Assembly (NCBI GenBank): GCA_963843975.1
Contig: CAWJMG010000001.1
Span: 1,080,001-1,112,000 of the forward strand
Direction of reading: 5' to 3'
Source: an uncultured Actinomycetes bacterium
GTDB taxonomy: Bacteria > Actinomycetota > Actinomycetes > S36-B12 > CAIYMF01
DNA length: 32,000 nucleotides
The position numbers and the translations under genes are program-made. Shown piece after piece: positions 2,209-32,000 of the stretch; within the stretch, counting starts at the first letter, position 1, and every line of letters begins with the position of its first letter. The notes under the pieces were generated by a model that searched no databases, was not told the DNA's origin, and was given only the letters and a program-made list of their open reading frames with translations.

Positions 2209-2227
2209 CGTCTTCGGGGTCGTGGGC

Positions 2228-8420: not shown

Positions 8421-8571
8421 GACGGAGCCTCCGGTCGACGCACGTGAGGTGGTCCAGGCGGCCACGGAGACACCCTAGGGACGGCGAGCCGTCCCCGCTC
8501 GCCCGATGGATGAGCGTCCTCCCCACGGGTGAAGCTGCGCCGCACACCCCCGTGGCCGGGGCTCCGCGGGC

Positions 8572-11590: not shown

Positions 11591-12452
11591 ATGAAGCTCA
11601 TCCGCATCGGGGCCGCCGGCGCCGAGAAGCCCGCAGCCCTCGTGTCCGACGGCACCTACGTCGACCTCTCCGACGAGGTCCGCGACTTCGACGAGGCGTT
11701 CTTCGGCAGCGGCGGCATCGAGCGGGTGCGCGGCCTCGTGTCCGAGCGCACCGCCGCGGGCGACGTGCACCAGCTCGGCGACCAGCGCCTCGGTGCGCCG
11801 TTCGCACGGCCGCACCAGATCCTCTGCATCGGCCTCAACTACAGCGACCACGCCGCCGAGACCGGTCAGGCGGTGCCCGACGAGCCGATCCTGTTCACCA
11901 AGTCGCCCAACACCCTCATCGGGCCGGATGACGACGTCCTCATCCCGCGCGGCGCGACCAAGCCCGACTGGGAGGTGGAGCTGGGCATCGTCATCGGCCG
12001 TCGCACGAGCTACCTCGACTCGGTCGAGGAGGCGCGCGACGTCATCGCCGGCTACTGCGTCGTCAACGACGTGAGCGAACGCGCGTTCCAGATGGAGCGC
12101 GGCGGCCAGTGGAGCAAGGGCAAGAGCTGCCGAGACCTTCAACCCTGCCGGTCCGTGGCTCGTCACGCCGGACGAGATCGACGACGTGCTCGCGCTCGAC
12201 ATGTGGCTCGACGTCAGCGGCGTACGCCGGCAGACGGGCACGACGGCGACGATGATCTTCGACCCGTACTTCCTGGTGCACTACCTCTCGCAGTTCCTCG
12301 TGCTCGAGCCCGGCGACCTCATCAACACGGGCACGCCTCCGGGCGTCGGCCTGGGCTTCAAGCCGCCGGTATGGCTGCAGCCCGGCGACGTCATGGAGCT
12401 CGGCATCACGGGCCTCGGCGCCCAGCGGCAGAACGTGCTCGCACCTCGATGA
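11591..12452 (+). pseudogene. Fumarylacetoacetate hydrolase (FAH) family protein, apparent +1 frameshift near 12124-12131
   Basis: The N-terminal 180 aa (…ILCIGLNYSDHAAE…DWEVELGIVIG…GYCVVNDVSERAFQ…QWSKGKS) are in frame 2. The C-terminus (ETFNPAGPWLVTPDEIDDV…GDLINTGTPPGVG…GITGLG) is in frame 0. Skipping one base rejoins them. Confidence 0.8.
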
Positions 12453-13481: not shown

Positions 13482-14223
13482 ATGGCCGAGTTCGACGGGA
13501 TCGCCGCGATCGTGACCGGTGGTGCGAGCGGGCTCGGCGCCGCGACGGCTGCGCTGCTCGTCGAGCGCGGCGCCAAGGTGGCCGTGCTCGACCTCAGCAC
13601 CGAGACGGCGCCGCCCGGCACGGTGCCGATCACCTGCGACGTGTCGGACTCCGCCTCGGTCGAGGCCGCCGTGCACGCCGCGGCCTTCGAGCCTCGGCGG
13701 CATCGATGTCGTCGTCAACAACGCCGGCATCGGCGCGGGCGGCGACGTCGCGGCGAACGGCGACGACGAGTGGCACAAGGTGCTCGACGTGAACGTGGTG
13801 GGCATGGCGCGCGTCGCGCGGGCCGCGCTGCCGTACCTGCGCGAGTCGAAGCACCCCGCGATCGTGAACACGAGCTCGGTCGTCGCCGTGGTCGGCGTCA
13901 AGAACCGCGCGCTCTACAGCGCCAGCAAGGGCGCGGTCCTCGCGATGACCCTCGCGATGGCCGCAGACCATGTGGGAGAAGGCATCCGCGTCAACGCCGT
14001 CGCGCCCGGCACCGCCGACACCCCCTGGGTCGCACGGCTGCTCGACGAGGCCGACGACCCGGCCGCCATGGGCGAGGCCCTCCGACGACGTCAGCCGATG
14101 GGACGCCTCGTGAGCCCCGACGAGGTCGCGCACGCGATCGCCTACCTAGCGAGCCCCCTGTCGGCCAGCACCACCGGGACGGTCCTGGGAGTAGACGGCG
14201 GCATGGCCGGACTCCGGGTCTGA
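13482..14223 (+). pseudogene. SDR family oxidoreductase, apparent +1 frameshift near 13689-13695
   Basis: TGGASGLG N-terminus in frame 0. GGIDVVVNNAGI ... YSASKGAV ... PGTADTP in frame 1. Removing one C from GAGCCTC gives AAAFELGGIDVVVNNAG. Confidence 0.8.
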
Positions 14224-15389: not shown

Positions 15390-17063
15390 TCAGTGAGGGG
15401 TGCGGGAGAGGTGGCGGCGGGCGTGCTCGATCGCCTCGGGGGTCGACGCGAACACGTGCGCCTGGTGGGCTAGGTGCTCGTAGACGCCGAGGGTGGCGAA
15501 CACGGTGTTGTGCTCGTCGCGGATTCCGCTGAGCAGCACGGTGATCCCGCGCCCCTCGAGGTCGCGGATGGTCTGGCCGAGCACGGTCGCCCCGGTGGCG
15601 TCGAGCGTCTGCACCCGACCGAGCCGCAGGATCACGACGCGTACGTCGCCCACCTCCGACAGCTCGAGCAGGAAGCGGTGGGCCGCACCGAAGAACAGCG
15701 GGCCGTCGAGGCGGTAGGCCACGACGTGCTCGTCGAGGAGCGCACGCTCTGCGTCGCTGTGGTCGCTCGTGTCGAGCGGCGTCTCATCGAGGTGGGCGGA
15801 CCGCGAGACCTGCTGCAGCGCATACAGACCCGCGACCACGAGCCCGACGATGACGGCGGTGACGAGGTCGAACACCACGGTCGCGACCGCGGTGGCGACG
15901 AGCACCAGGGCGTCGCCACGCGTCGCGCGCATGAGGGCTCGGAGGTTCGACACCTCGACCATCTGCACGACGGTCGCGATCAGCACGCCGGCGAGCGCCG
16001 CGAGCGGAATGTGCCCGACCCACGGAGCGGCGACGAGCATCACGACGAGCAGGGCGACGGCGTGCGTGGCAGACGCCAGGCGCGAGCGGGCGCCGCTGCG
16101 CACGTTGACCGCCGTACGCGCGATGGCCGCCGTCGCCGGGACGCCGCCGAAGATCGGCGCGACGAGGTTGGCGAAGCCCTGGCCGAACAGCTCGCGGTCG
16201 GAGTCGTGCCGCTCGCCGACGCTCATGCCGTCGGCGACCGTGGCCGAGAGCAGGCTCTCGAGCGCTGCCAGTGCGGCGACGGCGAGAGCGGGGACGACGA
16301 GCGAGCTGCGCTGGCCCCAGGCGACGCTGGGCAGCGCCGGCGCCGGGAAGCCGGTGGGGATCACGCCGATCGTCTCGGCGGGAAGGCTGAAGTAGGAGAC
16401 CGCGAGCGTCGCCACGATCACGGCAGGCAGCGACACCGGCAGGCCGGGCTTGAACCGGATAGCGAGCAGCATGCTGATCGCCACGAACGCGGCTACGAGC
16501 ACAGGCGCCCACTGCGGCGCCTCGAACCACAGCCGCACCGCCTCGATCGCGCGGCCGAGGACCTTCTCGCCCTCGACACTCACGCCGAGCGCGGACGGCA
16601 CCTGCTGGAGTCCGATGATCACGGCGATCCCGAGCGTGAAGCCCTCGACGACCGGCAGGGGCACGAACTGCATCCAGCGACCGGCACCGATGAGCGCCAG
16701 CACGATCAGGAAGACGCCGGCGAGCAGGCCGACGACGAGGACGGCGCTGGTGCCGAACTGCGCGACGATCGGCAGCAGCACCACGGTCATCGCACCCGTG
16801 GGCCCGCTCACCTGCAGGTTGCTCCCCCCGAGGAGAGCGGCGACGAGGCCTGCGACCACGGCGGTCACGAGCCCGGCACCCGCACCCAGGCCGGACGCGA
16901 CCCCGAACGCGAGGGCGAGGGGCAGCGCCACCACCGCGACGGTCAGGCCGGCGATGAGATCGCGCTTGGGGTCCCGTCGCATGGCCCGGTAGTCCGCGGC
17001 CTGGGGCAGGAGCGCGCGCACACGGGACAGGACCGCGGCGGCACCGGCGTGGTCGGTGCTCAC
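15390..17063 (-). CDS. SulP family inorganic anion transporter with C-terminal STAS domain
   Basis: 557 aa from the GTG at 17063. DLIAGLTVAVVALPLALAFG N-terminal signature, many TM helices, and a STAS block (YRLDGPLFFGAA...ILRLGRVQTLDATGA). Confidence 0.85.
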   Translation of the reverse strand: MSTDHAGAAAVLSRVRALLPQAADYRAMRRDPKRDLIAGLTVAVVALPLALAFGVASGLGAGAGLVTAVVAGLVAALLGGSNLQVSGPTGAMTVVLLPIVAQFGTSAVLVVGLLAGVFLIVLALIGAGRWMQFVPLPVVEGFTLGIAVIIGLQQVPSALGVSVEGEKVLGRAIEAVRLWFEAPQWAPVLVAAFVAISMLLAIRFKPGLPVSLPAVIVATLAVSYFSLPAETIGVIPTGFPAPALPSVAWGQRSSLVVPALAVAALAALESLLSATVADGMSVGERHDSDRELFGQGFANLVAPIFGGVPATAAIARTAVNVRSGARSRLASATHAVALLVVMLVAAPWVGHIPLAALAGVLIATVVQMVEVSNLRALMRATRGDALVLVATAVATVVFDLVTAVIVGLVVAGLYALQQVSRSAHLDETPLDTSDHSDAERALLDEHVVAYRLDGPLFFGAAHRFLLELSEVGDVRVVILRLGRVQTLDATGATVLGQTIRDLEGRGITVLLSGIRDEHNTVFATLGVYEHLAHQAHVFASTPEAIEHARRHLSRTPH

Positions 17064-17401
17064 GAGACCTTGCGCCGTCCCGCCTTCAGCTCCTTGCGGA
17101 GCCCGGCCTGGTCGTCGATCACGTCGAGCAGGATCGTCCGCGCGGCGAGCAGCAGGTCGCGCGTCTCCGGTGCGGTGATCGCGTAGAACACCTGGCCGTC
17201 GCGGCGGTGCTGGGCGACGAGACCGGTGCGGCGCAGCGCCGCGAGCTGGTGCGAGAGGTTGCTCGGCTCGATCTCGATCTCGGCGAGCAGCTCGTGGACG
17301 GCGTAGTCGCGCTCGGAGAGCAGCTCGAGGACCCGGATCCGCGCGGGGTGGCCGAGTGTGCGGAAGAACTCGGCCTTGGCCTCGTACAGCGGCTTCGTCA
17401 T
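17060..17401 (-). CDS. ArsR/SmtB family transcriptional regulator
   Basis: 113 aa. FFRTLGHPARIRVLELL...HELLAEIEIEPSNLSHQLAALRRTGLV. Its TGA overlaps the SulP GTG start (GTGA). Confidence 0.85.
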   Translation of the reverse strand: MTKPLYEAKAEFFRTLGHPARIRVLELLSERDYAVHELLAEIEIEPSNLSHQLAALRRTGLVAQHRRDGQVFYAITAPETRDLLLAARTILLDVIDDQAGLRKELKAGRRKVS

Positions 17402-17682: not shown

Positions 17683-18348
17683 ATGACGTGGATCCTGGTC
17701 ATCGACGACGAGCCGGGGATCGTCAGGTTCGTGAGTCGCGCGCTGATCGCCGCCGGCTACGACGTCGAGACAGCAAGCAACGGTGTCGACGGGCTGCGCC
17801 GCGCCTCCGAGCAGCGGTTCGACCTGATCACCCTCGACCTGCGCCTTCCGGGGCTGGGCGGGATGGCCGTGCTGACGGCGCTGATGGAGCAGGACCCGGG
17901 CAACCGCGTCCTCGTGCTCTCGGCGGCCGAGGGCGTGCAGGAGCGGGTCCGGTGCCTCGAGAGCGGTGCCGCAGACTTCCTGGCCAAGCCGTTCGCGGTG
18001 GCCGAGCTGCTCGCACGCATCAAGTCGCGGCTCCCTGCACCGACCGGCCAGCCCGCCGCCCCGACCATCGAGACGGGTCGCGTGCAGCTCGACCCACACC
18101 GGCGGACGGTGACCGCCGACGGGCGGGTCATCGAGCTGTCGGCGCGGGAGTACCGCGTCCTCGTCCACCTCATGACCCGGGCCGACCGGGCGTGCTCACG
18201 CCAGGAGCTGCTGTCCGAGGTCTGGGGGCTCGCCTTCGACCCAGGCAGCAACGTCGTGGACGTATGCGTCGCACGCCTGCGCGCGAAGCTTGCCGGGGCT
18301 CACATCCAGACGGTGCGCAATGTCGGTTATGCCTTCGTCTCGGCGTGA
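17683..18348 (+). CDS. OmpR/PhoB-family two-component response regulator
   Basis: 221 aa. Receiver domain (VIDDEPG, LITLDLRLPG, AKPF) and winged-helix output (LSAREYRVLVHLM...VRNVGYAF). Confidence 0.9.
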   Translation: MTWILVIDDEPGIVRFVSRALIAAGYDVETASNGVDGLRRASEQRFDLITLDLRLPGLGGMAVLTALMEQDPGNRVLVLSAAEGVQERVRCLESGAADFLAKPFAVAELLARIKSRLPAPTGQPAAPTIETGRVQLDPHRRTVTADGRVIELSAREYRVLVHLMTRADRACSRQELLSEVWGLAFDPGSNVVDVCVARLRAKLAGAHIQTVRNVGYAFVSA

Positions 18349-19399
18349 CGACGGCCTCCTGGCCGCGTTCCTCGTCTTCGCCGGGATCTGCCTGCTGGTG
18401 ATGGCCTTCGTGCCCGGTCAGGTCACGGTGCCCTACCACCTTCTCTTCCTCAGCCTCACCCTCGTCTACGGCTACGCGCTCTGGCCGGCGCGCCGCACGG
18501 TCGCTCTCCTCCTGCTGGTCACCGTGGCGACCGGATTCATGCTCACGCGGCTGGCGATGACCGGTGAGATCGAGTGGGAGGAGTGCACGGAGATCGTGCT
18601 CATGCCCGCGATCTTCCTGGGCATGCTCTGGCACTCGCAGCGGCAGCTGCAGGCGCGCGAGCGCATGGCGACGGTCGCCATCGAGCAACGCGCCCTCCTC
18701 GATCACGAACGACAGTTCATCCAGGAGACCTCGCACGCGATCCGTACGCCTGTGACCGTGGCGCGCGGGCACCTCGACCTCGCCCTCGAGCACGTCAGCG
18801 ATCCGCAGGCCCGCGGCGACCTCGAGGTCGTCGCCCTGCAGCTCGAGCGCATCGCCAAGCTCGCCGGGACCCTGATGGCGTTGAAGGAGCTGGGCAACCC
18901 GAACCAGCACGACCGACACACGGTAGACGTCGCGGACGTCGTGGCCGCCGCCGCGCGCCGCTGGTCCAAGACGGCCGACCGCGACTGGCAGATCCTCGCG
19001 CCGGCCGGTGCCGTCGCCCTGGTGGACGAGCACACGCTCGAGCTGGCGCTGGACGCACTGCTGGAGAACGCCGTCCGCTTCACCGAGCCGGGCGACGTCG
19101 TCCGGGTGAGCGTCGCGTGGCTCAACGGCCGGGTCGAGGTGGAGGTCGCCGACTCCGGCCCTGGCGTGCCTCAGGCCGACCGCATCCATGTCTTCGACCG
19201 CTTCTGGCACGGGGAGTACCAGGCCGGTGGTCAGGGTTCAGGTCTCGGCCTGGCTCTCGTGCAGGCTGTCGCAGAGGCGCACGGCGGCACCGCCCGCGTC
19301 GCGGACTCCGACCTCGGCGGGGCGTCGTTCACCCTCGAGCTGCCCACTCCGGTGCTCCCGCGCGTCACCGTCGACAGCGAGGCACCCGGGATCGTCTAG
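18329..19399 (+). CDS. Sensor histidine kinase, membrane-embedded type with no sizeable extracytoplasmic domain
   Basis: H-box ETSHAIRTPVT, LLENAVRFT, DSGPGVP, GSGLGLALV. About four N-terminal TM helices. The start is uncertain (in-frame candidates at 18290, 18320 and 18329), and it overlaps the regulator's 3' end. Confidence 0.85.
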   Translation: MPSSRRDDGLLAAFLVFAGICLLVMAFVPGQVTVPYHLLFLSLTLVYGYALWPARRTVALLLLVTVATGFMLTRLAMTGEIEWEECTEIVLMPAIFLGMLWHSQRQLQARERMATVAIEQRALLDHERQFIQETSHAIRTPVTVARGHLDLALEHVSDPQARGDLEVVALQLERIAKLAGTLMALKELGNPNQHDRHTVDVADVVAAAARRWSKTADRDWQILAPAGAVALVDEHTLELALDALLENAVRFTEPGDVVRVSVAWLNGRVEVEVADSGPGVPQADRIHVFDRFWHGEYQAGGQGSGLGLALVQAVAEAHGGTARVADSDLGGASFTLELPTPVLPRVTVDSEAPGIV

Positions 19400-19513
19400 G
19401 GCAGCCGCCTGCTCGCATCGCATCGCATCGCCCGTCGGTCATGGATCGACGGGCTATATCGCATGGGGCAGTTGGTGACTCGCCGACTCGCCCAGGAGTG
19501 GATGACAGACGCA

Positions 19514-19527
19514 TGACAGAGCTGTCA
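19514..19527. promoter_or_regulatory. Palindrome TGACAG-AG-CTGTCA upstream of the giant secreted-protein gene
   Basis: Perfect 6-2-6 inverted repeat. ATGACAGA is also directly repeated at 19502-19509 and 19513-19520. It lies about 85-98 nt upstream of the ATG at 19612. Confidence 0.4.
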
Positions 19528-19611: not shown

Positions 19612-22600
19612 ATGTTCTCGACCCGGACCAACGCCCGCCGCACCGCGGCGGCGCCGATCGTCGTGCTCACGCTCCTGCTGGGGCTGACGCCGGCACTCGT
19701 CGTCGGCGCGAGCGCCCCCGCGGCCGCCGCCACCTTCGGCGACCTGCGCGTCAAGGTCGTGACCGCACGGGCGATGGGCTCGTTGGCCGCGGGAGCAGCC
19801 ATCGACCCGGCCGCCACCTACACCTGGCTCATCACGGCTGACGATGCCGGCAACCCCGACCAGCAGCTCTCCGCGTGCCAGGCCTCCAACCCCGGCTACC
19901 CCGAGAGCTGCGCGTGGCCGTCGATCCGTCAGACCCCGGGCGCTGTGCCGATCGTCGCGCAGGGCACGCGGGCGGACCTCAACGCCACCAAGGCCCTGGC
20001 CGGCCTCCCCGCAGGCAAGTACCTCATCTCGGTGCTCGCGGACGGATACACGCTGGGCGGCAAGCACTTCACGATGCCGCTGTCCGCGCCCGTCCTCGAC
20101 GTCCCTGTGCAGCCGAACCCCGTCCCCCTGGGCACCATGCGCATCCGCGTCTTCCACGACAACGCGCCCGTCGACGGCACCTACGAGGCAGGTTCGGAGA
20201 CCGGTCAGCAGGGCAACCCCACCAACAACCTCTCGGGGTTCGAGGCCCACCTCAGCGACGTCCTGGGCGAGGTCACGACCGACTGGTACGGCAACCCGCT
20301 GTGCACCAACTACCGGCACGACGGCAACGGCCGCGTCGTGTTCGACGCCGGGTCGCCCGTCATCAACGCGACCAACCCCGGTGGTCGCTGCCTGAGCAAC
20401 GCCGTAGGCGACATCGTCGTCCCCAACCTCGGCAGCAACCGCTACGGCGTGACCCTGAGCAAGCCGGCGAACAAGGCCTCGTGGGTGCAGACCACGACGC
20501 TGGAGGGCGCGCACGACCACGACGTGTGGGTCATCAACGGCGACAACGGCCTGGACTCCGAGCTCGTCGTCGGCGGCGAGCCGGTGCCGTGGGTGCAGTT
20601 CGGCTACATCGAGCAGCGCCCCATGCGCAGCTCCACCGCAGTCGCGCACGTGAAGGGCCAGATCCTGGAGGGCCTCGCCTACGTCGGCGGCAACGGCGGC
20701 GTCACCATGCCCGGTGGGACCGGCACGGCCGGCGGCAAGGAGGGGCGGCCGATCGACCGCCCGTGGATCTCCCTGTCCGATCTCGGCAACGGCGACCAGA
20801 TGGTCTACACCGGCCGCGGCAACACGGACGGCACCTTCGACATCGCCCGCGTGCCGGACGGCACGTACCAGCTCACCGCGTGGGACGACGCACAGGACTA
20901 CATCCTCTTCAGCTTCAACGTAACCGTCGACAACCAGGTCAGCGTGGACACCGGCAAGAACTACCTGTCGGGCTGGATGACGCGGCTGTACGGCACCGTC
21001 TTCATCGACACCAACGAGAACGGCGTCCGGGACCCCGGCGAGCAGGGCGTGCCCGGCACCGCCGTGACCCTCCGCGAGCGCGACAACTCGCTCATGGACC
21101 AGTTCACCAACACCGCGACGACCGACAGCAAGGGCAACTACTCGATCGCCGAGGCGTACCCGCTCACGCGCTGGCTGATCCTCGAGCACTTCAACACGCG
21201 CTACTACGGCACCGGCGTCACGGTGCAGGGCGAGAACGACCCCACGCCCACGACGTTCCGCGGCGCGGCGGTCGACATCAACGTCCTGCCGGTCCTCGGC
21301 CTCGGCGGCCGCATCGACTGGGGGGTCAAGCCCTACGCCCCCGGCACCAACGGCGGGATCGTCGGCACCGTCTCGTACGACACCACGCGCAACGAGCTCG
21401 ACCCGGCGTACGCCGTGGCCGAGGACTACCAGCCGGGCGTGCCTGGGATCGGCGTGAACCTGTACGGGATCGAGAAGGACACGCGGGCCACCATCACCGA
21501 CCCCAACGACCCCTCGGCGACCATCCCCAACCCGGACTTCGGGATGCCGATTCTCGACAGCCGCGGGCTCCCCGTCCGCGGGCCGAAGCTCGCCGACACC
21601 TACACCTCCGAGACGTGGGAGGCCCCGAAGGGCTGCACCGCTCGGCAGTGGGACGGGAGCGAGCGCACGGGTCTCGGCTTCATCCCGGCATCCGGCCTCG
21701 CCGCGAACAAGACCTGCGTCGAGTCGCCGGCCATGGGCGTCCAGGTCCGTCCCGCCGACACGACCCAGGACGCCTGGGGCCAGACGGTGAACGGCAACTA
21801 CGGCTTCGCCGACTCCGACCTCAACCTCTACCTCCCCGGCGACCCGGACAACCCCGGCTACCCCGAGGGCTACGCGGCCGCCCACCCCGACGAGTGCGCG
21901 AACATCGCGACCCCCGAGGTCACGTGCGCACCGGGCGCCAACGACCTCCCGCTCTACGCCGATCTCGCGGCGTACGGCTACGACCCCCAGGCGCTCACGC
22001 CTGACGACTACGTGGTCGCGGTCGACATCCCCGACAACCCCGTCGGCGGCGGGAAGATGTACCAGGTCACCCGCGAGCAGGACGTCAACGTCTTCGACGG
22101 CGACTCGTACCTCCCCTCGGAGAACTTCCCCGTCACGAACGACCCGACGACCAACCCGCCGGTCATCAACGGTGGCAACACCGACGCTCCGACCGAGCCC
22201 CCGACGCAGGGCGGCGGGCTGGGCCTGTCGCCGTGCATCGGTGCGGACCAGACGGTCGACGTCACCAACCCGAACTTCCTCGACAACGGCGGCAGCCCGT
22301 TCCAGGGCCAGGCACGCCCGCTGTGCGACGAGAAGCTCGTGACGCTGCGCGGCCAGTCCGCGGTTGCGCCGACGTTCACGATGTTCACGCAGACGCCGCT
22401 GCCCACGCACTTCTGGGGTCTCACGATCAACGACCTCGGCCTCACGTGGGACAAGCGGAGCATCCAGTACGGCGAGGCGCAGGGCATCCCCGGCGTCCCC
22501 ATGGGCATCTACGACTTCAGCGGTCGTCTGATCGACACCGTGAAGACGGACTTCAACGGCTTCTACGAGGCCATCGAGCCCTCGACGTCGTCGTACAACT

Positions 22601-24999
22601 GCCCGACCCCGGCAGGTCCCTGCGCCGGCATGTACCGGTTCGTCGGCAACGACCCCGGTCAGCCAGGAGCACCGAACGCCAACTACAACCCGCGCTACCG
22701 CACGATCGCCACGAACTTCCAGGCGTACCCGGGCCTGTTCACGGTGACGGACACCGCACCGACGCAGACCGGTGCCGTGGCGATCACCCCGGGCACCACC
22801 ACGCCCGTCCCCGTCAACTGCGCAGTGAGCGCGACGACACCCGAGGTCTTCGCGGTCGACAAGGTCGTGGTCAAGGGCAGTGACGGCACTGCAGCCCGGA
22901 CGGTCACGGTCAACGGCCAGGGATTCGGTACGTTCACGTCCGGCTCGCGGGTCGAGCTCGTCCGCACCGACGGCACGGTGATCAACGCGACGTCGGTCTC
23001 GAGCTGGACCGGTACGCAGATCAAGTTCGTCGTCCCGAACACCGTCTCGATCATCCTGCCCCTCTACGGACCGCTCCAGCTGCGCATCCGCAACGCGAGC
23101 GGCAACTACTCGAGCAGCGCCGTCACGATCCACGAGACCCGCGGCCTCCTCTACGACCCTGCGGTCCGCGAGGTCGGCCCGGGCAAGACGTTCGCCACGA
23201 TCCAGGCCGCCATCGCCAACGGGGTCCCGGCGGCGGACGTCGCTCGGGAGTACGCTTTCGGACGGCTGATCGTCGTCTACCCGGGCACGCCGACCGCGTT
23301 CAACCCTGACGGTGCGTACCAGCAGAACGTCGTCATGAATCGCAGGGTCAAGCTGCAGGGCTTCGGTCCTGGCGGTATCCAGGCCGACGGGACGCACGTG
23401 CGCGGCACCGTGATCAGCGGCGCGGCCTATGACGCGGACGGCGCCTCGGGTGCGGCCTGGGCCGCCCTCGCAGCGGGTCGCCACGCGGGCCCGGCAGGTG
23501 TGCCGGACGGTGCCGTGGTGACGGTCCTCCCGACCACGACCGAGCAGTTCCGGACGAACCTCCCGCTGCAGAGCGCCCTCGGCAACGCCGCGATCGACGG
23601 CTTCCGGATCACGGGCGGCTACCAGTCCGACGTCGGCGTCGCGCCGAACGTCATCGGCGGGAACCGCACGGGGTACGGCGCACCAGGCGCGACGGTCTCG
23701 CAGGGCGGCGGAATCTACGTGCACGCCTCCGCGACCAACCTCCGCCTGTCCAACAACCTGGTCATCGGCAACGGCGGCTCGTACGCCGGCGGTATCCGAG
23801 TCGGCACGCCGTACGCCACCGTGAGCGACAACCAGAACGACAACGTCGTGATCGCCTACAACCGCATCCGCGACAACGGCGGCACGAACCTCGCCGGCGG
23901 CATCGGGATCTTCACCGGCACCCAGAACTACGTCGTCGACCACAACGACATCTGCGGCAACTTCTCGCAGGAGTACGGCGCGGGCATCAGCCAGTACGGG
24001 TTCAGCCCCGGTGGCCGGATCACCGCGAACCGCGTGTGGTTCAACGAGTCGTACGACGAGGGAGCCGGCATCTTCCTTGCCGGCGAGCTCCCCGCCAACC
24101 CGGACGACGCGTCGGCCGGCACGGGCGAGGAGACGATCTCCGGCAACACGATCGTCGCCAACAGCGCCAACGACGACGGCGGCGGCATCCGGCTCCTGCA
24201 GGTGGGGAACTACCCCACCAGCGGGCCCGGCAGCCGTCCGGCGGCCCAGCGCATCGGCTACCTGATCCGCATCGACAACAACATCGTGGCGGACAACGTG
24301 TCGACCCACGAGGGCGGTGGCATCGCCCTCGACGACGCGGCCAACGTCCAGATCGTGTCCAACACGGTGGCACGCAACATCACGACGGCCACCGCCGTGA
24401 CGAGCGACGGCACTCCCGCCCCGGCGGGCCTGTCGACCGGCGCCAACAGCACCCAGCTGCAGGCGACCCTGCCGGTCGGGGCGTCGACCTGGAGCAACCC
24501 GGTGCTGCTCGGCAACATCTTCTGGCAGAACGCTGCCGGCACCTGGGACGGCATGAACGTCAACGGGATCGGCATCGGCGGGGCCGCCGACCTGAACTTC
24601 TGGGACATGGGGTCCACGGACGGCTCCGGTCCGCTGACACCCAGGTTCGGGGTCATGACGAACCTCCACGCAGGAGTCACCGTCGACGCGACGAACGTCC
24701 TGTCGCCTGGCAACACTGTCGGCTTCGTGAACCCGTACAGCGTCTCGGTGGACGTGTCCACGCTGCGGGCGTTCCCGGGATTCCGGCAGTCGGTGATCGT
24801 CGTGAACAACGTTGCTCCCGACGTCCAGGGCAGCTACCGCATCGCGGCGGGGAGCACCGCGATCAACGTCGGCCGTGCCGCAGCGCTCTACGGGCCGCTG
24901 ACGGTGACCGCTCCGAGCACCGACATCGACGGGACCGTGCGCTACGCGGGCACCGCCACCACCACCACGCAGATCGATGCAGGAGCTGACGAGCGATGA
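19612..24999 (+). CDS. Giant secreted multidomain protein (1795 aa): signal peptide, SdrD-B/Cna-B-like and carboxypeptidase-regulatory-like beta-sandwich domains, IPT/TIG-like domain, C-terminal right-handed parallel beta-helix (PbH1 repeats)
   Basis: N-terminal signal RRTAAAPIVVLTLLLGLTPALVVGASAPAAA. GTVFIDTNENGVRDPGEQGVPGTAVTL...DSKGNY at about 20990-21150. TIG-like VVVKGSDG...VTVNGQGFG...IKFVVPN at about 22860-23040. GGGIYV/SNNLVIGNGG/GGIRV/NRIRDNGG/GGIGIF/GAGI/GGGIRL/GGGIAL repeats at about 23560-24400. Terminal STAINVG...TDIDGTVR...IDAGADE motif. Confidence 0.8.
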   Translation: MFSTRTNARRTAAAPIVVLTLLLGLTPALVVGASAPAAAATFGDLRVKVVTARAMGSLAAGAAIDPAATYTWLITADDAGNPDQQLSACQASNPGYPESCAWPSIRQTPGAVPIVAQGTRADLNATKALAGLPAGKYLISVLADGYTLGGKHFTMPLSAPVLDVPVQPNPVPLGTMRIRVFHDNAPVDGTYEAGSETGQQGNPTNNLSGFEAHLSDVLGEVTTDWYGNPLCTNYRHDGNGRVVFDAGSPVINATNPGGRCLSNAVGDIVVPNLGSNRYGVTLSKPANKASWVQTTTLEGAHDHDVWVINGDNGLDSELVVGGEPVPWVQFGYIEQRPMRSSTAVAHVKGQILEGLAYVGGNGGVTMPGGTGTAGGKEGRPIDRPWISLSDLGNGDQMVYTGRGNTDGTFDIARVPDGTYQLTAWDDAQDYILFSFNVTVDNQVSVDTGKNYLSGWMTRLYGTVFIDTNENGVRDPGEQGVPGTAVTLRERDNSLMDQFTNTATTDSKGNYSIAEAYPLTRWLILEHFNTRYYGTGVTVQGENDPTPTTFRGAAVDINVLPVLGLGGRIDWGVKPYAPGTNGGIVGTVSYDTTRNELDPAYAVAEDYQPGVPGIGVNLYGIEKDTRATITDPNDPSATIPNPDFGMPILDSRGLPVRGPKLADTYTSETWEAPKGCTARQWDGSERTGLGFIPASGLAANKTCVESPAMGVQVRPADTTQDAWGQTVNGNYGFADSDLNLYLPGDPDNPGYPEGYAAAHPDECANIATPEVTCAPGANDLPLYADLAAYGYDPQALTPDDYVVAVDIPDNPVGGGKMYQVTREQDVNVFDGDSYLPSENFPVTNDPTTNPPVINGGNTDAPTEPPTQGGGLGLSPCIGADQTVDVTNPNFLDNGGSPFQGQARPLCDEKLVTLRGQSAVAPTFTMFTQTPLPTHFWGLTINDLGLTWDKRSIQYGEAQGIPGVPMGIYDFSGRLIDTVKTDFNGFYEAIEPSTSSYNCPTPAGPCAGMYRFVGNDPGQPGAPNANYNPRYRTIATNFQAYPGLFTVTDTAPTQTGAVAITPGTTTPVPVNCAVSATTPEVFAVDKVVVKGSDGTAARTVTVNGQGFGTFTSGSRVELVRTDGTVINATSVSSWTGTQIKFVVPNTVSIILPLYGPLQLRIRNASGNYSSSAVTIHETRGLLYDPAVREVGPGKTFATIQAAIANGVPAADVAREYAFGRLIVVYPGTPTAFNPDGAYQQNVVMNRRVKLQGFGPGGIQADGTHVRGTVISGAAYDADGASGAAWAALAAGRHAGPAGVPDGAVVTVLPTTTEQFRTNLPLQSALGNAAIDGFRITGGYQSDVGVAPNVIGGNRTGYGAPGATVSQGGGIYVHASATNLRLSNNLVIGNGGSYAGGIRVGTPYATVSDNQNDNVVIAYNRIRDNGGTNLAGGIGIFTGTQNYVVDHNDICGNFSQEYGAGISQYGFSPGGRITANRVWFNESYDEGAGIFLAGELPANPDDASAGTGEETISGNTIVANSANDDGGGIRLLQVGNYPTSGPGSRPAAQRIGYLIRIDNNIVADNVSTHEGGGIALDDAANVQIVSNTVARNITTATAVTSDGTPAPAGLSTGANSTQLQATLPVGASTWSNPVLLGNIFWQNAAGTWDGMNVNGIGIGGAADLNFWDMGSTDGSGPLTPRFGVMTNLHAGVTVDATNVLSPGNTVGFVNPYSVSVDVSTLRAFPGFRQSVIVVNNVAPDVQGSYRIAAGSTAINVGRAAALYGPLTVTAPSTDIDGTVRYAGTATTTTQIDAGADER

Positions 25000-26327
25000 G
25001 CGACATGCAGAACGACTCGGACGGCTCGTCGTCGCCGCTGCTCGGTCGTCGGGCGCTGCTGCGCGGCGGTGCGGTGCTCGCCGCAGGCGCGGCGACGGGA
25101 GGCTGGCTCCTCAGCCGTGGTGCGGCCGACGCCGCGATCGTGCGCAACGCGGTCCCGGCCGTCTACCGCGCGCCCGGCCCGCGCGAGCAGCTGCTGCACC
25201 TTGCGGCGACCGACGGATGGGTGTCCATGCCTGCCGACGCACCGCCGGTCGGGGCCTTCTGGCCGGACACCCTCGCGCCGACGGGCTACAACGTCTACGC
25301 ATTCGGGTTCCGCGACGTCACCGGCATGACCCCCACCCAGGTCCTGGCTCAGAAGGAGCGGGCGCAGATCTCTGCTCCCATCCTCGGGTTCGACCAGTAC
25401 GTGAAGGCGAAGGACAACGCCGTCCGCGTGACGCTGTCGAACCTGGGTCTCGCCGTGCGCCCCGACCTGGTGGACGGCCACACGATCCACTGGCACGGCT
25501 TCACCAACGCCATCCCGCTGTTCGACGGCGTCCCCGAGCTGTCGATCTCCGTGCCGATCGGACGCGACTTCACGTACTACTACCGCCCGCACCTGCCCGG
25601 CACGTACATGTACCACTGCCACTTCGAAGACGTGGAGCACGTGCAGATGGGCATGACCGGAGTCCTGTACGTCCGGCCGGAGCGCAACACCATCAGCCAG
25701 AAGTTCGCGTACGACCACGACGCGACGGCGTACGAGCGGGAGTTCACCTTTATGCTCACCGAGCTCTGGGCCGAGGGTCACTACCGGGACGCGCACATCC
25801 AGACGTCGGACTGGACCGACTACAAGCCGAGCTTCTGGCTCATGAACGGCCGCGCCTACCCCGACACGCTCAAGCCCAACATCAACCCCATGGACTCGAG
25901 GCCGGACACCAACCCGGCGCTGCAGTCGGACTCCGGCGCATCGCTGCGCTACAACCCGATCTCGTCGCTCGTGCGGTGCAACGCCGGCGACCGCGTGCTG
26001 CTGCGCATCGCGAACCTCGGGTACCAGCACCACGCGATGACCCTCGACGGCATCCCGATGAAGGTGGTCGCCAAGGACGCGAGCCCCCTGATCGGAAACG
26101 GTCCGGATCTCACCTACGAGACGAACACCGTCGAGGTCGGCCCCGGTGAGAGCAGGGATGTGATCTTCACGGCTCCTGCAGTCGCGTCCACCACGACCTT
26201 CCGCCTGTACGACCGCAACTACGCCTACCTGAGCAACGCGGGCGCTGCGGGGTACGGCGGTCAGATGACCGAGGTGCGCGTGTCCCCCACAGGGACCTTC
26301 GGCCCCCAGACCGGCCCGAACCAGTGA
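24996..26327 (+). CDS. Two-domain multicopper-oxidase-like protein 1 (Tat signal; domain 1 carries a complete T1 site plus two HxH pairs; domain 2 is ligand-poor)
   Basis: 443 aa. Twin-arginine motif GRRALLRGG. HTIHWHG at 25479-25499. HCHFEDVEHVQMGM at 25614-25655. Second cupredoxin domain has only QHHAMTLDG. ATGA overlap with the giant gene stop. Confidence 0.8.
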   Translation: MSDMQNDSDGSSSPLLGRRALLRGGAVLAAGAATGGWLLSRGAADAAIVRNAVPAVYRAPGPREQLLHLAATDGWVSMPADAPPVGAFWPDTLAPTGYNVYAFGFRDVTGMTPTQVLAQKERAQISAPILGFDQYVKAKDNAVRVTLSNLGLAVRPDLVDGHTIHWHGFTNAIPLFDGVPELSISVPIGRDFTYYYRPHLPGTYMYHCHFEDVEHVQMGMTGVLYVRPERNTISQKFAYDHDATAYEREFTFMLTELWAEGHYRDAHIQTSDWTDYKPSFWLMNGRAYPDTLKPNINPMDSRPDTNPALQSDSGASLRYNPISSLVRCNAGDRVLLRIANLGYQHHAMTLDGIPMKVVAKDASPLIGNGPDLTYETNTVEVGPGESRDVIFTAPAVASTTTFRLYDRNYAYLSNAGAAGYGGQMTEVRVSPTGTFGPQTGPNQ

Positions 26328-26341
26328 GGAGGGCGGCAACC

Positions 26342-27680
26342 ATGCGAGCACTGTCCTGGAGCCCGGCCCGCACCGCGGCGCTCGCCGTGGTCACGATGAC
26401 CACTGCCCTGCTCGTCTCGGCCGGCCTCGCCGGCCAGGCTCAGGCCGCGTCCGACGAGGGCCTCGTGTGCGAGACGAGCGCGACCAACTCGTTCAACCTC
26501 ACCGCGACCAGCGGCTACATCCTCACGCCCGACGGCAACTCCATCTTCATGTGGGGCTATGCCGGTCCGAGCGGGACCTTCCAGCTTCCCCGGGCCGACG
26601 CTCTGCGTCGCCGAGGGCGCGACCGTGACGGTCACGCTGAAGAACCAGCTGCGCGAGCCGGTCTCGATCGTGTTCCCCGGTCTCACCGGTGTGAACGCGG
26701 ACGGGCAGCCCGCGCAGCCGACGTTCGACACGGCGGGGAAGCTCACCTCGCTGACGAAGGCGGCCGCCGCATCAGGCGGGACCGTGACCTACTCCTTCGT
26801 GGCCTCGCGACCGGGCACGTTCCTGTACGAGTCCGGCACCGACGTCGCCAAGCAGGTCCAGATGGGCCTGTACGGAGCCCTCGTCGTCCGCCCGGCGATC
26901 AACGGCACGATCATCGACGGCCAGGCGTACGACGACCCGGCGTCGAAGTTCGACCAGGGCCACGAGTACCTGCACCTGCTGTCGGAGATCGACCCGGCGT
27001 TCCACCTCGCGGTCGAGCGCAACCGGGCCTTCGACCTCGTCAACCTCCGCAGCCGCTACTTCCTCATCAACGGCCGCAGCATGCCGGACACCATCGCGCC
27101 GAACGGCGCTGCCTGGCTGCCGGCGCAGCCGTACGGATCGCTGATCCACATCCTTCCCAAGCCGGCCAACGCCGGCCCCGCGTATCGACCAGCGCTCATC
27201 CGCTACCTCAACGCCGGCACCGGGACGTACCCGTTCCACCCCCACGGCAACGACCAGCGCGTGGTGGGCAAGGACGGCTACGGGCTCATCGCCACCGGGA
27301 GCGGCGACTCCAGCTACGAGAAGTTCCTCATCGACATCGGCCCGGGCCAGACCGTCGACACCACGCTCGAGTGGAGCAACGAGGAGAACTACGCCCCGGA
27401 CACCGACCCGAACGACGGCGTCAACACCGACATCCCTGTCGACCTTCCAGCTCTCAACGACCAGATCATCACGCCGGACACGTGGTTCAGCGAGAGCCCC
27501 TACCTCGGGTTCACCGCCGACCTGCCGCCGAACGTGACGTCCAACAACCAGTGCGGCGAGTACTACCACGTGGCCCACAGCCACGCGCTGCAGCAGGCAA
27601 CGAACTACGGCGCGACCTTCGGCGGGATGATGACCCTCATCCGCATCGACCCGCCGGCCGGCTGCCCGGTGACGCCATGA
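26342..27680 (+). pseudogene. Two-domain multicopper-oxidase-like protein 2 (Sec signal; domain 1 ligand-less; domain 2 keeps HPH and HSH pairs but has lost the T1 His and Cys), apparent +1 frameshift near 26582-26591
   Basis: GAGGAGGG RBS and ATG at 26342. Signal ...AGLAGQAQA. The N-terminal 83 codons are in frame 2 (…GTFQLP) and the remainder in frame 0 (GPTLCVAEGATVTVTL…). YPFHPHG (His-Pro-His-Gly at 27237-27248) and HVAHSH at 27567-27584. Confidence 0.8.
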
Positions 27681-30408
27681 GCAACGGGACCGAGAGCGGG
27701 ACGACCATGAACTCACGACAGCGCTCGAGCCGTGCCCTGGCCATCGTGGCCGGCGGATCGCTCCTCCTCGCAGGGGTTGCCGCGGTGCCGCCGATCGCCG
27801 CCGCCCAGGCCGGTGCTGCGGCGCCGGCCCGGGTCGCGGCGGCAGTGCACCCCGCAGCAGTGCTCGTGCCGAGCACGGGAACTGCCTGCGTGGCCGGCAC
27901 CGGCACGCGGGTGTGCGACCTGTGGGCGCGCACCGGCGTGAACGCGGGGCCGGGTGCGCTCACCGGCGTCTCGTTCTGGAGCTACACCAGTGCAGCTGCC
28001 GACCCCGTCGGCACCACCGGGCCGACGCTCGTCGTGCAGCAGGGGGAGAGCGTCACGCTCCGGCTGCACAACCGGCTCGGCACGGGGCGCATCACGTCGC
28101 TCGCGATGCCGCAGGTCGACAGCTTCACCGAGGACACCACGGGCGTCGCGGACCTCGCCGACAAGGACTACACGTTCACGGCCACGCGTCCGGGCACGTA
28201 CCTCTACGAGGCCGGCGGCACGACCGACGGCGCGCGCCAGACCGCGCTGGGCATGGTCGGCGCCCTGGTCGTCGTGCCCACCGCCGCGCCGACCACCTAC
28301 ACGGACGAGGCCGTCGCTCTGCTCACCGACGTCGACCCCGGGCTGCACGCCAACCCGGCGACGTACGACATGCGCAACTACAACCCCCGCGTCCACCTCG
28401 TCAACGGCGCGACGTTCCCGTCGACGACGAACCTCCCCGTCACGGCAGGCAGCAACGCGTTGCTGCGCGTCGTGAACGGCGGAGTCGTCCAGCACGCGAT
28501 CGGCATCCTCGGGACGAACCAGAGGGTCGTCGCCGTCTCCTCCCGCACCCTCAGCCACCCGTACGGCGTGGCGGCCGAGAACGTCGCCGCCGGTGACACG
28601 CTCGACCTGCTCGTGTCGGTCCCGGCCGCCACGACCGCCGGGCTGAAGTACGCCGTGTACGACGCCTCCACGAGGCTCGACAGCAGCACGGGGGCCGCGA
28701 CCGGCATCGTGCCGTTCGGCGGAGCGCTGACGTTCCTCGACACCGGCTCGGCCGTCGCGACGAGCCCGGGGCCGAGCATCACCGGCCTCGTCGTCACCCC
28801 GGCCCGGTCCAACGGCTCGGCGTCGCTCACCTTCACGGGCACCGCCGGGATCACCGGCGACCCCGCGGTCACCGGCCTCGAGTACGTCGTGGACAACGGC
28901 GCGATCGCGACCGGATCGGGCACGGCGGTCGCGGGGGGCACCGGTCCCGTGACCGGCACCTTCTCGGCCACCGGTCTCGCCACCGGGTCGCACACGCTGC
29001 TGCTCCGCGCGAACAGCGCCGCGGGCTGGGGACCGTTCGCGGCCGCCACGTTCGTGGTCGACCGCACCGGCCCCGTCGCCTCGGGCGTCGGACTCAGCAG
29101 GCCGTCGGTCGGGAAGCTCGACGGTCTCGACCTCCGTCACGGTCAGCGCGAGCGCCTCGGACAGCACCACGGGCGGCAGCAACGTGACCGCGGCGACGTA
29201 CTCGATCGACGGAGGGCCGACTCAGCCGCTGACGCTCGCCCCCGGGCCGGCGGTCACGGTCTCGCTGAGCGGGACGATCGCGAAGTCCGTCGTCGACGGG
29301 CTCCTCGAGGGCAAGCACACGATCTCCGTGGTCGCGTCCGACCAGTTCGCCAACGTGGGCACTGCGGCGACCGCGGTGCTCCTCGTGGACCGCACCACCC
29401 CGACCGTCTCGGGTGTCACGGTGAGCCCGTCGCCGAACAACGGCGCCCAGGGCACACCTGCCGACCCGACCTCGGTCGAGGTCCGGGCGTCGTTCGCCGA
29501 CGCCTCCGCGGGCACAGCGCCCGGCGGCCCTGCTGCCAGCGGGGTCGTGTCCGGCGAGGGCTTCCTCGGCGGGACCACCGCGGGCACTCCGGGCACCGGG
29601 TTCCTGCTGACGCCCTACCCGACGGGCAGCCCCACCCAGCTGCTCGGCACCTTCCCGGTCTCGGAGCTCACGAGGTTCCCCGACGGACCGCTGACGGTGT
29701 GGGTGCGGGCCAAGGACGCCGCAGGCAACTGGGGCACCGCGGTCGCAGGCACGCTGGTCATCCAGCGCGACGCGATCTTCGCCAGCGCGTTCGACAGCCC
29801 GACGACGCTCGTCCCACCGTGGTCGAGCCAGGTTACGTCGAGCGGCCTCACCGTCGCGAACGCCGTGTCCGGCACGTCGCGCCAGCTGGTCGTCACCCGC
29901 TCGGGGTCGTTCTCGAACAACTCTCGCGGCTACGTCGTGACGACGGCACCGTCGGCCGAGACGAAGTACAAGGCGGCGTTCCAGTTCACGCCGGGCACCC
30001 TCACCACGGGCTCGTCGACCAACAACGCCCGCATCCTCACCATCTTCGCGGCAAGGACGGGGGCGGGGACGAACGCGCTCACCGTGCAGTACCGGTCCTT
30101 CGGTACGTCGCGTCAGGTGCGGATGCAGGTGGCCACGGCGACCGGGGCGAAGCTCGACCGCCTGGACGACGCTCGCCACGGGCAACGGCCCGGTCACCCT
30201 GCACCTCACGTGGGTGTCGGCGGCCTCGGCCACGGCGACGTTCACGATCGGCAGCACCGCGGTGCCGTCGCTCACCGGGCTGAACACGAGCGGCAACACC
30301 ATCGAGACGGCCTGGCTCGGCGTCTCTGCGTCGTCCGGCAGCGGGACGGTCTCGACCGGATCGCTCGCCTTCGACAACTTCGACTCGCGGCGCACCACCG
30401 CCCCGTGA
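27677..30408 (+). pseudogene. Cupredoxin-pair protein 3: signal peptide, two ligand-less MCO-like cupredoxin domains, Ig-like repeats and a C-terminal beta-sandwich-like domain; two apparent +1 frameshifts (about 29113 and about 30149)
   Basis: ATGA overlap with the protein 2 stop. GPTLVVQQGESVTLRLHN, PGTYLYEAGG...ALGMVGALVVVP and VNGATFP...LLRVVNGG are paralogous to proteins 1 and 2. VDRTGPVASGV / VDRTTPTVSGV Ig-like repeat starts. The reading frame moves 2 to 0 to 1, ending at TGA 30406-30408. Confidence 0.75.
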
Positions 30409-30425
30409 CCGACAAGGAGAACCCG

Positions 30426-30902
30426 ATGGCCACCACCGAAGGTCGCGGCACCAACCCGTTCCGGCGGCACGCCCGCGCGCTTGCCGCCGCGACAGGGCTC
30501 GCGCTCTGCCTCGGCATCGCCGGCGCCGTAGCTGCCGAGGCGGGCAAGCGCCCGACCCGGCCGTCCATGCCGGTCAGCAGCGAGGTCGAGACGAACGCGG
30601 GGGTCCGCGTCATCCGGGCCAGCCTCGCAGCCGACGGCGGACTGCTCGACGTGCGGTACGTCGTCCTCAACGCGCCGCGGGCGCAGAAGTGGATGGCGGA
30701 CACCTCCCAGCCTCCGGCGCTGTACGACCAGAGGAACAAGGCCACGATCGCCCGCGTCGCGCCTATGCGTGACGCGCACCAGCAGCGGCCGGGTCAGACC
30801 TACTACCTCGTCTACCAGAACGTTCGGAACACGATCCACCGCGGAGACCGGATCGACCTGACCGTGGCCGGCGTGACCCTGCACGACATCCCGGTGGAGT
30901 GA
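30426..30902 (+). CDS. Small secreted or membrane-anchored hypothetical protein (158 aa)
   Basis: AAGGAGA RBS. N-terminal FRRHARALAAATGLALCLGIAGAVAA hydrophobic segment. Family not recognised. Confidence 0.6.
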   Translation: MATTEGRGTNPFRRHARALAAATGLALCLGIAGAVAAEAGKRPTRPSMPVSSEVETNAGVRVIRASLAADGGLLDVRYVVLNAPRAQKWMADTSQPPALYDQRNKATIARVAPMRDAHQQRPGQTYYLVYQNVRNTIHRGDRIDLTVAGVTLHDIPVE

Positions 30903-30910
30903 GAGCGACC

Positions 30911-32000
30911 ATGTCCGCACGTCGCGCCTGGGCGCGCCTCAGCCTCGCGGCGGCTGCCGTCGTCGTGGGTCTGACGCTGTCAGCCGCTCCCGCGTCGGCC
31001 CACGCCGTCCTCATCGGGAGCAACCCGGCGGACGGGTCGAGCCTCGACTCTGCTCCCCAGGAGCTCGTCCTCACCTTCGACGAGGCGGTCACGGTCGAGA
31101 GCACGGTCGTGCACCTGCTCGACGAGTCCGGCCGGACGCTCGAGGTCGGCGCCATCGCCGCCGGCGACGGTTCCGGCGAGGAGGAGGCCGAGGCGATCAG
31201 CGCCCAGCTGCCGCAGCTTCCCGAACGGCCGCTATCTCATCCGGTGGCAGACGATCACGAGCGACGACTTCCACCCGGTCGACGGGTCGCTGACGTTCGG
31301 GGTCGGAACCGGCGTCGGGGTCACGGCTGTCGGCGGCACCAGTGAGCGACCCGTGGGCGATGTCCTCGAGACGCTGACCCGGGGGACGGTCGTGGCCGGC
31401 TACATGCTCGCTGTCGGTGCCCTGGCACTCCTTCTGCTCGCGCACCCGCTGCTCGCCGCGCGTCCCATCGCGCTGCGCTTCGTGGTGCGGGCCTGCATGG
31501 TCGGCGTCGTCACGTCGATCGGAGGCCTCGCCCTGCTCGCGGCGCTGCTGACCCTCGACACCGGTGCGGCTCCGCCGACGTCGTTCCTCCTCTACTGGGG
31601 CGCTGCGGCGGCCGGGCTGCTCGTCCTCGGCATCAACGCGAGCGCCATCGACCGGCTGCACGGCACCCGCGCGCCCCGTCCGGCAGCAGCCGCGACGGCA
31701 GTGCTCGCGGCGCTCGCAACCGCTTGGGGCGTCGGCCATCTCGGGCACGGCGGTGCTGCCGCAGGCTCGGCGCTGTCCACCGTGCACGTCGCCGCGACCG
31801 CCGTGTGGGCGGGCGGCGTCGCCCTGCTCGTCCCCCTGGCCTTCTTCGCCGGGCGCGACGGTCAGAGCGGCTGGGCCCGCGACGTCATCAAGCGGTTCGG
31901 GCGCCTCGCGGTGCCGGCACTCGCGCTGTCGATCATGAGCGGTGCGCTGCTCGCCCGCGGACTCGTCCCCACCTGGGGTGGCCTCACCGAGACCGCGTAC
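30911..32000 (+). pseudogene. CopC-CopD fusion copper transport/resistance protein (YcnJ-like), apparent +1 frameshift near 31214-31223; 3' end runs off the window
   Basis: Signal ...SAAPASA followed by HAVLIGSNPADGSSLDSAPQELVLTFDEAV (CopC N-terminal His motif). After the shift, NGRYLIRWQTITSDDFHPVDGSLTFGV (CopC end), then multiple TM helices with VHVAATAVWAGGV (CopD-like). The frame stays open to position 32000. Confidence 0.8.

Follow-up and report, generated by a model that had tools for sequence, protein, structure and literature searches.

The 32,000-nucleotide (nt) stretch of contig CAWJMG010000001.1 analyzed here (the window), from an uncultured Actinomycetes bacterium, contains one copy of a widespread actinobacterial eight-gene unit. 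The unit is made up of an OmpR-family response regulator, a histidine kinase and six genes for signal-bearing products, g1 to g6 (Table 1), three of which (g2, g3 and g4) encode paralogous two-domain multicopper oxidases (MCOs). The copper ligands of one oxidase center are split between g2 and g3, and g4 has none. Taking the evidence together, we consider it somewhat better than an even proposition that the unit comprises a split oxidase built as a heterotrimer, is controlled by its own regulator and would carry out envelope copper handling of the Pco/Cop type, and that the frame breaks in the window copy are technical.

A conserved eight-gene unit in the Actinomycetota

The g3 family gave 2606 protein-search matches and at least 585 loci in species-representative genomes, and all of its hosts are Actinomycetota save one metagenome-assembled genome (MAG) contig labeled Oscillatoria. 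The closest species-representative genome is 74-75% identical, and a look-up of the g1 and g2 proteins retrieved no exact copy of either. Synteny was counted over the best 80 related loci, with gene order judged where the contig was long enough. The genes g1-g2-g3-g4-g5-CopCD (g6 being a CopC-CopD fusion) have the same order and strand in essentially all of these loci, and g2, g3 and g4 always co-occur. The genera with the locus include Nocardioides, Terrabacter, Micromonospora, Kribbella, Amycolatopsis, Actinoplanes, Intrasporangium, Planosporangium and Jatrophihabitans, to which Acidothermaceae is added. In L003, a contig from a population near-identical to that of the window, the genes 3' of CopC-CopD are not conserved in other loci, and we therefore place them outside the unit. 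Several Kribbella loci have CopC-CopD displaced by ~2 kb.

The G+C content of the window is ~70%, so that long spurious open reading frames (ORFs) are abundant, and coding frames were assigned by third-position G+C, which gives an uninterrupted coding signal on the + strand from 19612 to the window end. A previous description made from the letters of this DNA alone (the sequence-only reading) had proposed a compact set of six same-strand genes here, and its outline stands. All six genes lie on the + strand, with GGAG-like ribosome-binding sites upstream of gene starts; the ATGA overlaps at 24996-24999 and 27677-27680 were confirmed exactly, as were the gaps of 14 nt (26328-26341), 17 nt (30409-30425) and 8 nt (30903-30910); an N-terminal hydrophobic segment, consistent with the claimed secretion signals, is present in all six products; the + strand has no terminator-like sites within the cluster; and a CopC-CopD fusion does close the set (595-596 amino acids (aa) with both Pfam domains in intact relatives). 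The gene-neighborhood search that it had proposed was run, and synteny is very strongly kept outside the strain; the lack of synteny that it had named as a point against itself was not found. The six-gene account was nevertheless incomplete, as it missed the adjoining two-component system and a conserved direct repeat upstream, and it read silently through frame breaks in g3, g4 and the CopC-CopD gene. Uninterrupted ORFs are present only for g1, g2 and g5, and the ORF list of the window holds none for 26342-27680 and none for 27677-30408. The g3 gene opens in frame 1 at 26342, and only by a switch to frame 2 at ~26586 does it arrive at its stop at 27680; g4, with its start at 27677, arrives at its stop at 30408 only after two switches (29114 and 30150); and the CopC-CopD gene changes frame at ~31216-31218 and then runs past the window end. 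An Rfam search of the window returned no RNA family, and a sigma-70 promoter scan, which is ill-suited to the host organism, returned nothing.

The regulator-kinase pair lies directly 5' of g1 on the same strand in the window (17683-19399) and adjoins g1 in 58 of 62 related loci, usually in divergent orientation. In Kribbella (L046, L054, L057, L065, L068, L071 and L080) the pair is found 3' of g5, not 5' of g1. The best NCBIfam match of the regulator is the heavy-metal regulator TIGR01387, with 179.9 bits, which is under the cut-off of 279.2. For the kinase, only generic families gave matches, and its hydrophobic segments at residues 19-48 and 70-91 indicate a membrane-embedded N-terminus with no large outside sensor domain. 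The ATGACAG direct repeat (Table 1) is found 5' of g1 in the same orientation, with at most one mismatch, in 25 of 66 loci and in none of 462 control windows taken inside g1; with at most two mismatches the counts are 51 of 66 and 2 of 462. Direct repeats with such spacing are the usual targets of OmpR/PhoB-family regulators, and this one is a candidate operator through which the adjacent regulator would turn the operon on. The stretch 3' of the kinase gene (19400-19500) also contains a CATCG x3 run, a hairpin CCCGTCG...CGACGGG and a tandem GACTCGCC x2.

Copper ligands divided between g2 and g3

Described earlier as a cupredoxin trio, the g2, g3 and g4 products are not three independent cupredoxins. 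They are paralogous MCOs of two domains each, among which the halves of a single copper center are divided in a complementary way. The presence of two cupredoxin domains per chain is supported above the Pfam cut-off for g2 and g3, and weakly for g4. Instead of the eight trinuclear histidines in each chain, g2 has four (HWH and HCH), g3 has four (HPH and HSH) and g4 has none.

The closest PDB entries to g2 are 3g5w and 2zwn, both type C two-domain MCOs. Residues H162, H165, H167, H207, C208, H209, H215 and M220 are at least 95% conserved in the g2 family; the type-1 ligands among them (H162, C208, H215 and M220) align with the type C pattern of 3g5w and are absent from g3 and g4. The HWHG and HCH motifs of domain 1 are kept in g2, and both HxH motifs of domain 2 are lost family-wide. 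A twin-arginine motif is present in 77 of 79 g2 homologues; g3 and g4 are mostly without it and have mostly Sec-type signals.

In g3, the histidines of H299-P-H301 and H412-S-H414 are found in 100% of 82 sequences. In its domain 1, SIVFPG and YESG stand in place of the TIHWHG and YHCH of the oxidases, and the ligands of this domain are lost. The structural model of g3 has a mean predicted local distance difference test score (pLDDT) of 68, with domain 1 above 90 and the C-terminal third poor, and matches trimeric enzymes of two cupredoxin domains, namely NirK 4kns and the oxidases 9cck, 2zwn and 3g5w, over ~305-320 columns with template modeling (TM) scores of 0.6-0.64. The C-terminal third (residues 350-445 in the g3 homologue P0001) contains the most invariant stretch of the family, CGEYYHVAHSH...FGGMMT, and yet is modeled with pLDDT <50. 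The g4 family has no conserved HxH motif; its Pfam Cu-oxidase match of 19.4-19.8 bits is below the cut-off of 21, a weak Big_13 match was seen, and residues 115-364 match g2/g3 at ~30% identity.

Among characterized proteins, the type C two-domain MCOs, such as the blue copper oxidase of Nitrosomonas europaea (3G5W) and the metagenomic mgLAC (2ZWN), are the best sequence and fold matches and have the same two-cupredoxin layout. As in these proteins, the type-1 site of g2 is in domain 1, with the HxxHWHG...HCH...H...M pattern. However, the known members are homotrimers with eight trinuclear histidines per chain, whereas here the histidines are divided over two products and a third product has none. 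Two-domain MCOs and NirK form trimers in which adjacent subunits hold the catalytic copper between them, one contributing its domain 1 and the other its domain 2 (3G5W, 2ZWN, SLAC). From the complementary ligand sets, this trimer precedent and the constant co-occurrence of g4, we infer a g2-g3-g4 heterotrimer with one type-1 and one trinuclear site. Outside the cell, the three proteins would come together as a ring that has just one active center, at the g2:g3 interface: a homotrimer of either g2 or g3 would have no complete site, the g2:g3 contact would give exactly eight histidines, and g4, ligand-free and always co-occurring, would close the ring. Such a predicted ring would be like that of ceruloplasmin, which has six cupredoxin domains and a single trinuclear cluster at one domain interface, although ceruloplasmin is a eukaryotic single polypeptide rather than three and the likeness is at the level of the cupredoxin fold. 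Literature searches yielded no heteromeric two-domain MCO and no description of this cluster; their sole "heterotrimer" match is a proteolytic form of a homotrimer (PMC11761707).

Frame breaks in the window copy and the flanking genes

There are six frame breaks in the window, four of them in g3, g4 and g6 and two in upstream genes (Table 1), and we regard them with considerable confidence as consensus errors of a long-read assembly and not as biology. The window was compared with L001, a contig from another sample with 93.7% DNA identity, and with L003 (99.95%) and L085 (99.97%), which are short-read contigs of run ERR12037365 from a near-identical population. In L001 the genes are intact (g3, 445 aa; g4, 909 aa; g5, 158 aa; CopC-CopD, 595 aa), and over 6.4 kb it differs from the window by four indels in all, exactly at the four in-cluster breaks. 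The genes are intact in L003 and L085 as well. Over 8.2 kb, 4 indel events but only 3 substitutions separate the window from these two contigs, and every indel disrupts a conserved gene. Substitutions relative to L001 are still concentrated on third codon positions 3' of every break (for example, 40 of the 51 in g3 and 54 of the 65 in g6). A technical origin is indicated by the excess of indels over substitutions in the comparison with a near-identical population, by the location of each indel in a conserved gene and by the persistence of the third-position pattern. One window protein is also on record on a contig of more than 1 Mb, which suggests a long-read assembly. Among the related loci, in-cluster frame breaks affect 5 of the 12 that come from Microflora Danica MAGs and 1 of the remaining 68 (Fisher p = 2e-4), and these MAGs are nanopore-only assemblies with one round of Medaka polishing (PMC12313526). 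The loci with frame changes of their own in g1-g4 homologues are L005, L008, L026, L042 and L074 (Microflora Danica MAGs) and also L043; an example is the shortened G-run at ~8498-8537 in g3 of L008.

The break sites resemble one another. GAAGCT[C/G] is the outcome of each of the four in-cluster events once the proper strand is chosen; two pairs of break sites share identical 9-10-mers, each confined to those sites within the window; and AGCT lies within 3 nt of five of the six breaks (binomial p ~1e-7), the site at 13692 having no AGCT nearby. The breaks at 29114 and 30150 are alike, with GAGCTCGAC in L003/L085 changed to GAAGCTCGAC in the window. At break 4 the window has a sequence midway between the alleles of L003 and L001, and break 1 is positioned in the FQ(L)PGP that is invariant in the g3 family. 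The reverse-complement symmetry of the break motif argues for a DNA-level rather than a ribosomal cause, and the consensus errors may have to do with mixed strains or with modification of the AGCT motif. A uniform error model based on AGCT or GAGCTS methylation is a poor fit, with 62 GAGCTS and 17 other GAAGCT sites normal in the window and no AGCT at 13692. Apart from the breaks, the sole two substitutions relative to L003 are at 29669 and 29672; both are synonymous, 3 nt apart and right after AGCT (window GAGCTCACG, L003 GAGCTGACC).

The clustering of five of the six breaks at or beside AGCT and the identical 9-10-mers at two pairs of sites would also fit genuine breaks, that is, a recent pseudogenization of the operon and of two upstream genes by a mutational process targeting AGCT-containing sites, and so would the difference of the pattern from the homopolymer pattern of other nanopore MAGs. 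We consider this improbable, given an intact population at 99.95-99.97% identity, the excess of indels over substitutions, the absence of decay 3' of the breaks and the 62 other GAGCTS sites left untouched; six independent inactivating indels in unrelated conserved genes over 20 kb are implausible in a viable lineage. Programmed +1 ribosomal frameshifting, with NAG CUY N sites regulating the operon, was our first idea, as the four in-cluster breaks are all +1 and share one codon register, with CAG CTT C at two of them and AAG CTC G at the other two. It is effectively refuted and barely conceivable now, since the four events are one DNA motif (GAAGCTS) in both orientations and all relatives, including the 99.95% identical population, have single-frame genes; slippery or stop-codon context was not found at the breaks, and the 17 other GAAGCT sites are read in frame. 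The technical explanation is itself weakened by the fact that the AGCT bias is not seen at breaks in other nanopore MAGs and that most AGCT sites in the window are unaffected, and the long-read origin of the window's errors is something that we infer. Left uncorrected, these motif-linked, probably technical, indels would cause three of the six genes to be wrongly annotated, as fragments or pseudogenes.

Of the two upstream genes with breaks, the short-chain dehydrogenase is intact in L085 (246 aa). The N-terminal fragment of the fumarylacetoacetate-hydrolase-family gene covers only profile positions 2-113 of 214, and its break is likely an extra C in GAGCTGC[C]GAG, beside AGCT, a placement that rests on the family consensus, which we take to be GKS-x-D/E-TF-x-P-x-GP. 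The ArsR-family regulator and the SulP transporter that precede the unit in the window are neither of them conserved beside the cluster in related loci. The region 1118-5735 has ordinary actinobacterial content, and its genes appear intact.

Table 1. Features of the window, with positions counted from its first nucleotide
Feature	Position	Strand	Remarks
OmpR-family response regulator	17683-18348	+	Pfam Response_reg, Trans_reg_C
Histidine kinase	18290-19399	+	Pfam HisKA, HATPase_c; start uncertain, 18290 (TTG) or 18320 (ATG)
Direct repeat ATGACAG-N4-ATGACAG	19502-19519	+	11-bp period; 93 nt 5' of g1; sole match in the window
g1	19612-24999	+	Secreted, 1795 aa; intact ORF; SdrD_B / CarboxypepD_reg-like beta-sandwich modules, C-terminal parallel beta-helix-like region
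g2	24996-26327	+	443 aa; Pfam Cu-oxidase_2, Cu-oxidase_3; type-1 site and four trinuclear-cluster histidines, domain 1
g3	26342-27680	+	445 aa in relatives; Pfam Cu-oxidase; other four trinuclear-cluster histidines, domain 2; 1-nt insertion
g4	27677-30408	+	909 aa in L001/L003; two ligand-less cupredoxin domains, immunoglobulin (Ig)-like domains, C-terminal domain; two breaks
g5	30426-30902	+	158 aa; one membrane helix, small beta-sandwich domain; conserved M114, H118
g6, CopC-CopD fusion (YcnJ-like)	30911-32000	+	Frame-broken; cut by the window end
Frame break 1	26586	+	Extra base, CAGC[T]TCCCC, 1-nt insertion in g3; among the four indels relative to L001
Frame break 2	29114	+	Extra A, G[A]AGCTCGAC; not in L003 (99.95% identical) or L001
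Frame break 3	30150	+	Extra A, G[A]AGCTCGAC; not in L003, L004 or L001
Frame break 4	31216-31218	+	Window CAGCTTCCCG; same population CAGCGCTTCCCG (window 2 nt short); L001 CAGCTCCCG (window 1 nt extra)
Frame break in short-chain dehydrogenase gene (13482-14223)	13692	+	Window GAGCCTCGG, L085 (99.97% identical) GAGTTCGG; complex change
Frame break in fumarylacetoacetate-hydrolase-family gene (11591-12452)	~12130 (12124-12133)	+	Frame 1, then frame 2 to stop at 12452
ArsR-family regulator	17060-17401	-	
SulP/STAS sulfate-permease-family transporter	15390-17021	-	After the ArsR-family regulator
F420H2-dependent quinone reductase-family gene	1118-1684	+	
Sugar-type ABC importer, two permeases	2228-4206	-	
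Sugar-type ABC importer, binding protein	4353-5735	-	

Possible function of the unit

Of the other exported products, g1 had been described as a giant beta-helix protein, but the Pfam Beta_helix match is sub-threshold (24.6 bits, cut-off 25.9) and it is SdrD_B that is supported by Pfam. Homologues of g1 are ~1800 aa long in 76 loci, no PDB sequence relative was found, and the protein would anchor or display the complex on the cell surface. H118 of g5 is invariant, and 1165 cluster representatives make up the g5 family; no Pfam family covers g5, its model (pLDDT 78) has no significant PDB fold match and no relationship to YcnI (DUF1775) is detectable. For g6, the CopC domain (PF04234) scored 71.5 bits with a cut-off of 23.3, NCBIfam copper_CopC scored 56 bits, which is below the equivalog cut-off of 95, and CopD (PF05425) scored 48 bits with a cut-off of 32.1 in the intact same-population copy of L003. 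CopC and CopD are in one polypeptide of 595-596 aa in L001 and L003, and the window copy needs one frame correction at 31216-31218. The CopC domain would start with histidine after signal cleavage. YcnJ from Bacillus subtilis (ycnKJI copper-acquisition operon) has the same CopC-CopD architecture, with a secreted CopC starting with histidine, but it is accompanied by the repressor YcnK and by YcnI and not by oxidases. It is plausible that CopC-CopD supplies copper to the oxidase; it would handle the copper that the enzyme needs or detoxifies.

The sequence-only reading did not recognize a described system here, and in this it overlooked that an oxidase, CopC, CopD, a regulator and a kinase are together the gene-class content of the pco/cop copper-resistance operons. 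The Pco/Cop systems (pcoABCDRS of E. coli plasmids and copABCD-copRS of Pseudomonas syringae) share with the unit the classes MCO, CopC, CopD, OmpR-type regulator and kinase, clustered and exported. Three two-domain paralogues are present where Pco/Cop has a single three-domain PcoA/CopA, and g2 and g3 score 29.8 and 35.1 bits with TIGR01480 (copper_res_A), the cut-off of which is 478.95. The unit has CopC and CopD in one fused protein, it also encodes a surface protein of 1795 aa and a small protein anchored in the membrane, and its host is Gram-positive; no outer-membrane PcoB/CopB is present in the window or in related loci, and none is expected in such a host. A 2011 study by Schelder et al. 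is said to describe CopRS-controlled copper stress genes of Corynebacterium glutamicum that include a secreted oxidase, CopO. This is likewise an actinobacterial two-component system beside, and often divergent from, a secreted-MCO operon, although CopO is an oxidase of the conventional single-chain kind and has other genes around it.

Because of the pco/cop gene classes, the heavy-metal-like regulator and the presence of CopC-CopD, we slightly prefer envelope copper handling of the Pco/Cop type as the role of the unit. The same anatomy would also suit the idea of the sequence-only reading, in which the substrate of the oxidase is extracellular and is something other than copper, the candidates being Mn(II) or Fe(II), phenolic or lignin-derived material and a polymer of the cell surface to which g1 binds, while CopC-CopD supplies the cofactor only. 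This is a serious possibility, nearly as likely as copper handling because g2 is without a methionine-rich segment and g1 is adhesin- or polysaccharide-binding-like: at 1795 aa, g1 has a beta-helix-like fold that is common in polysaccharide-binding proteins. The Ig-like and extra C-terminal domains of g4, the description of 2zwn, the closest solved relative, as a laccase, and the soil actinomycetes that are the hosts fit the idea too. It is set back by the facts that no substrate-specific domain was identified and that the conserved neighbors of the cluster include no carbohydrate-active or lignin-related gene, and the Pco/Cop gene-class match and the heavy-metal-like regulator point to copper. 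Less probable, and in our view unlikely, is that g2, g3 and g4 form no complex at all, with g2 as the sole enzyme and g3 and g4 as copper-free binding or structural proteins. The g2 protein is of the twin-arginine translocation (Tat) type and g3 and g4 are mostly of the Sec type, so that they cross the membrane separately; but a g2 homotrimer, with the domain 2 HxH motifs lost family-wide, would be short of half of every trinuclear site, the four histidines of g3 are 100% conserved yet need a g2-type partner for a site, and the three genes always co-occur.

Several observations nevertheless count against a copper-handling heterotrimer. The methionine-rich segment typical of cuprous oxidases (CueO, PcoA) was not found on direct reading of the g2 sequence, which weakens a copper-detoxification role, and the regulator scores under the curated heavy-metal cut-off. 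The roles proposed for g1 and g5 are guesses, and g5 is without a fold match. The basis of the heterotrimer is the complementary ligand sets, structure prediction having been of single chains, and the C-terminal third of g3, with two of the ligand histidines, is in the low-confidence part of its model; judging from that model, this third may order only against a partner subunit or copper.

A broader proposal, which we put forward tentatively and at somewhat less than even strength, is that the unit encodes an obligate heterotrimer of six cupredoxin domains, with a single type-1 site and a single trinuclear site at g2:g3, tethered to a giant surface protein and under its own two-component control. 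It would represent an undescribed, widespread class of actinobacterial extracellular oxidase, intermediate between homotrimeric two-domain enzymes and single-chain six-domain ones such as ceruloplasmin. If this is true, the heterotrimer shows a symmetric homotrimeric copper oxidase evolving into an asymmetric enzyme with a single active site; to our knowledge, such a step toward the six-domain oxidases has been proposed and never observed. The unit would also define an uncharacterized, regulator-linked envelope copper system in hundreds of soil actinobacterial species, and it brings with it a large unannotated protein family (g5) and a testable operator motif.

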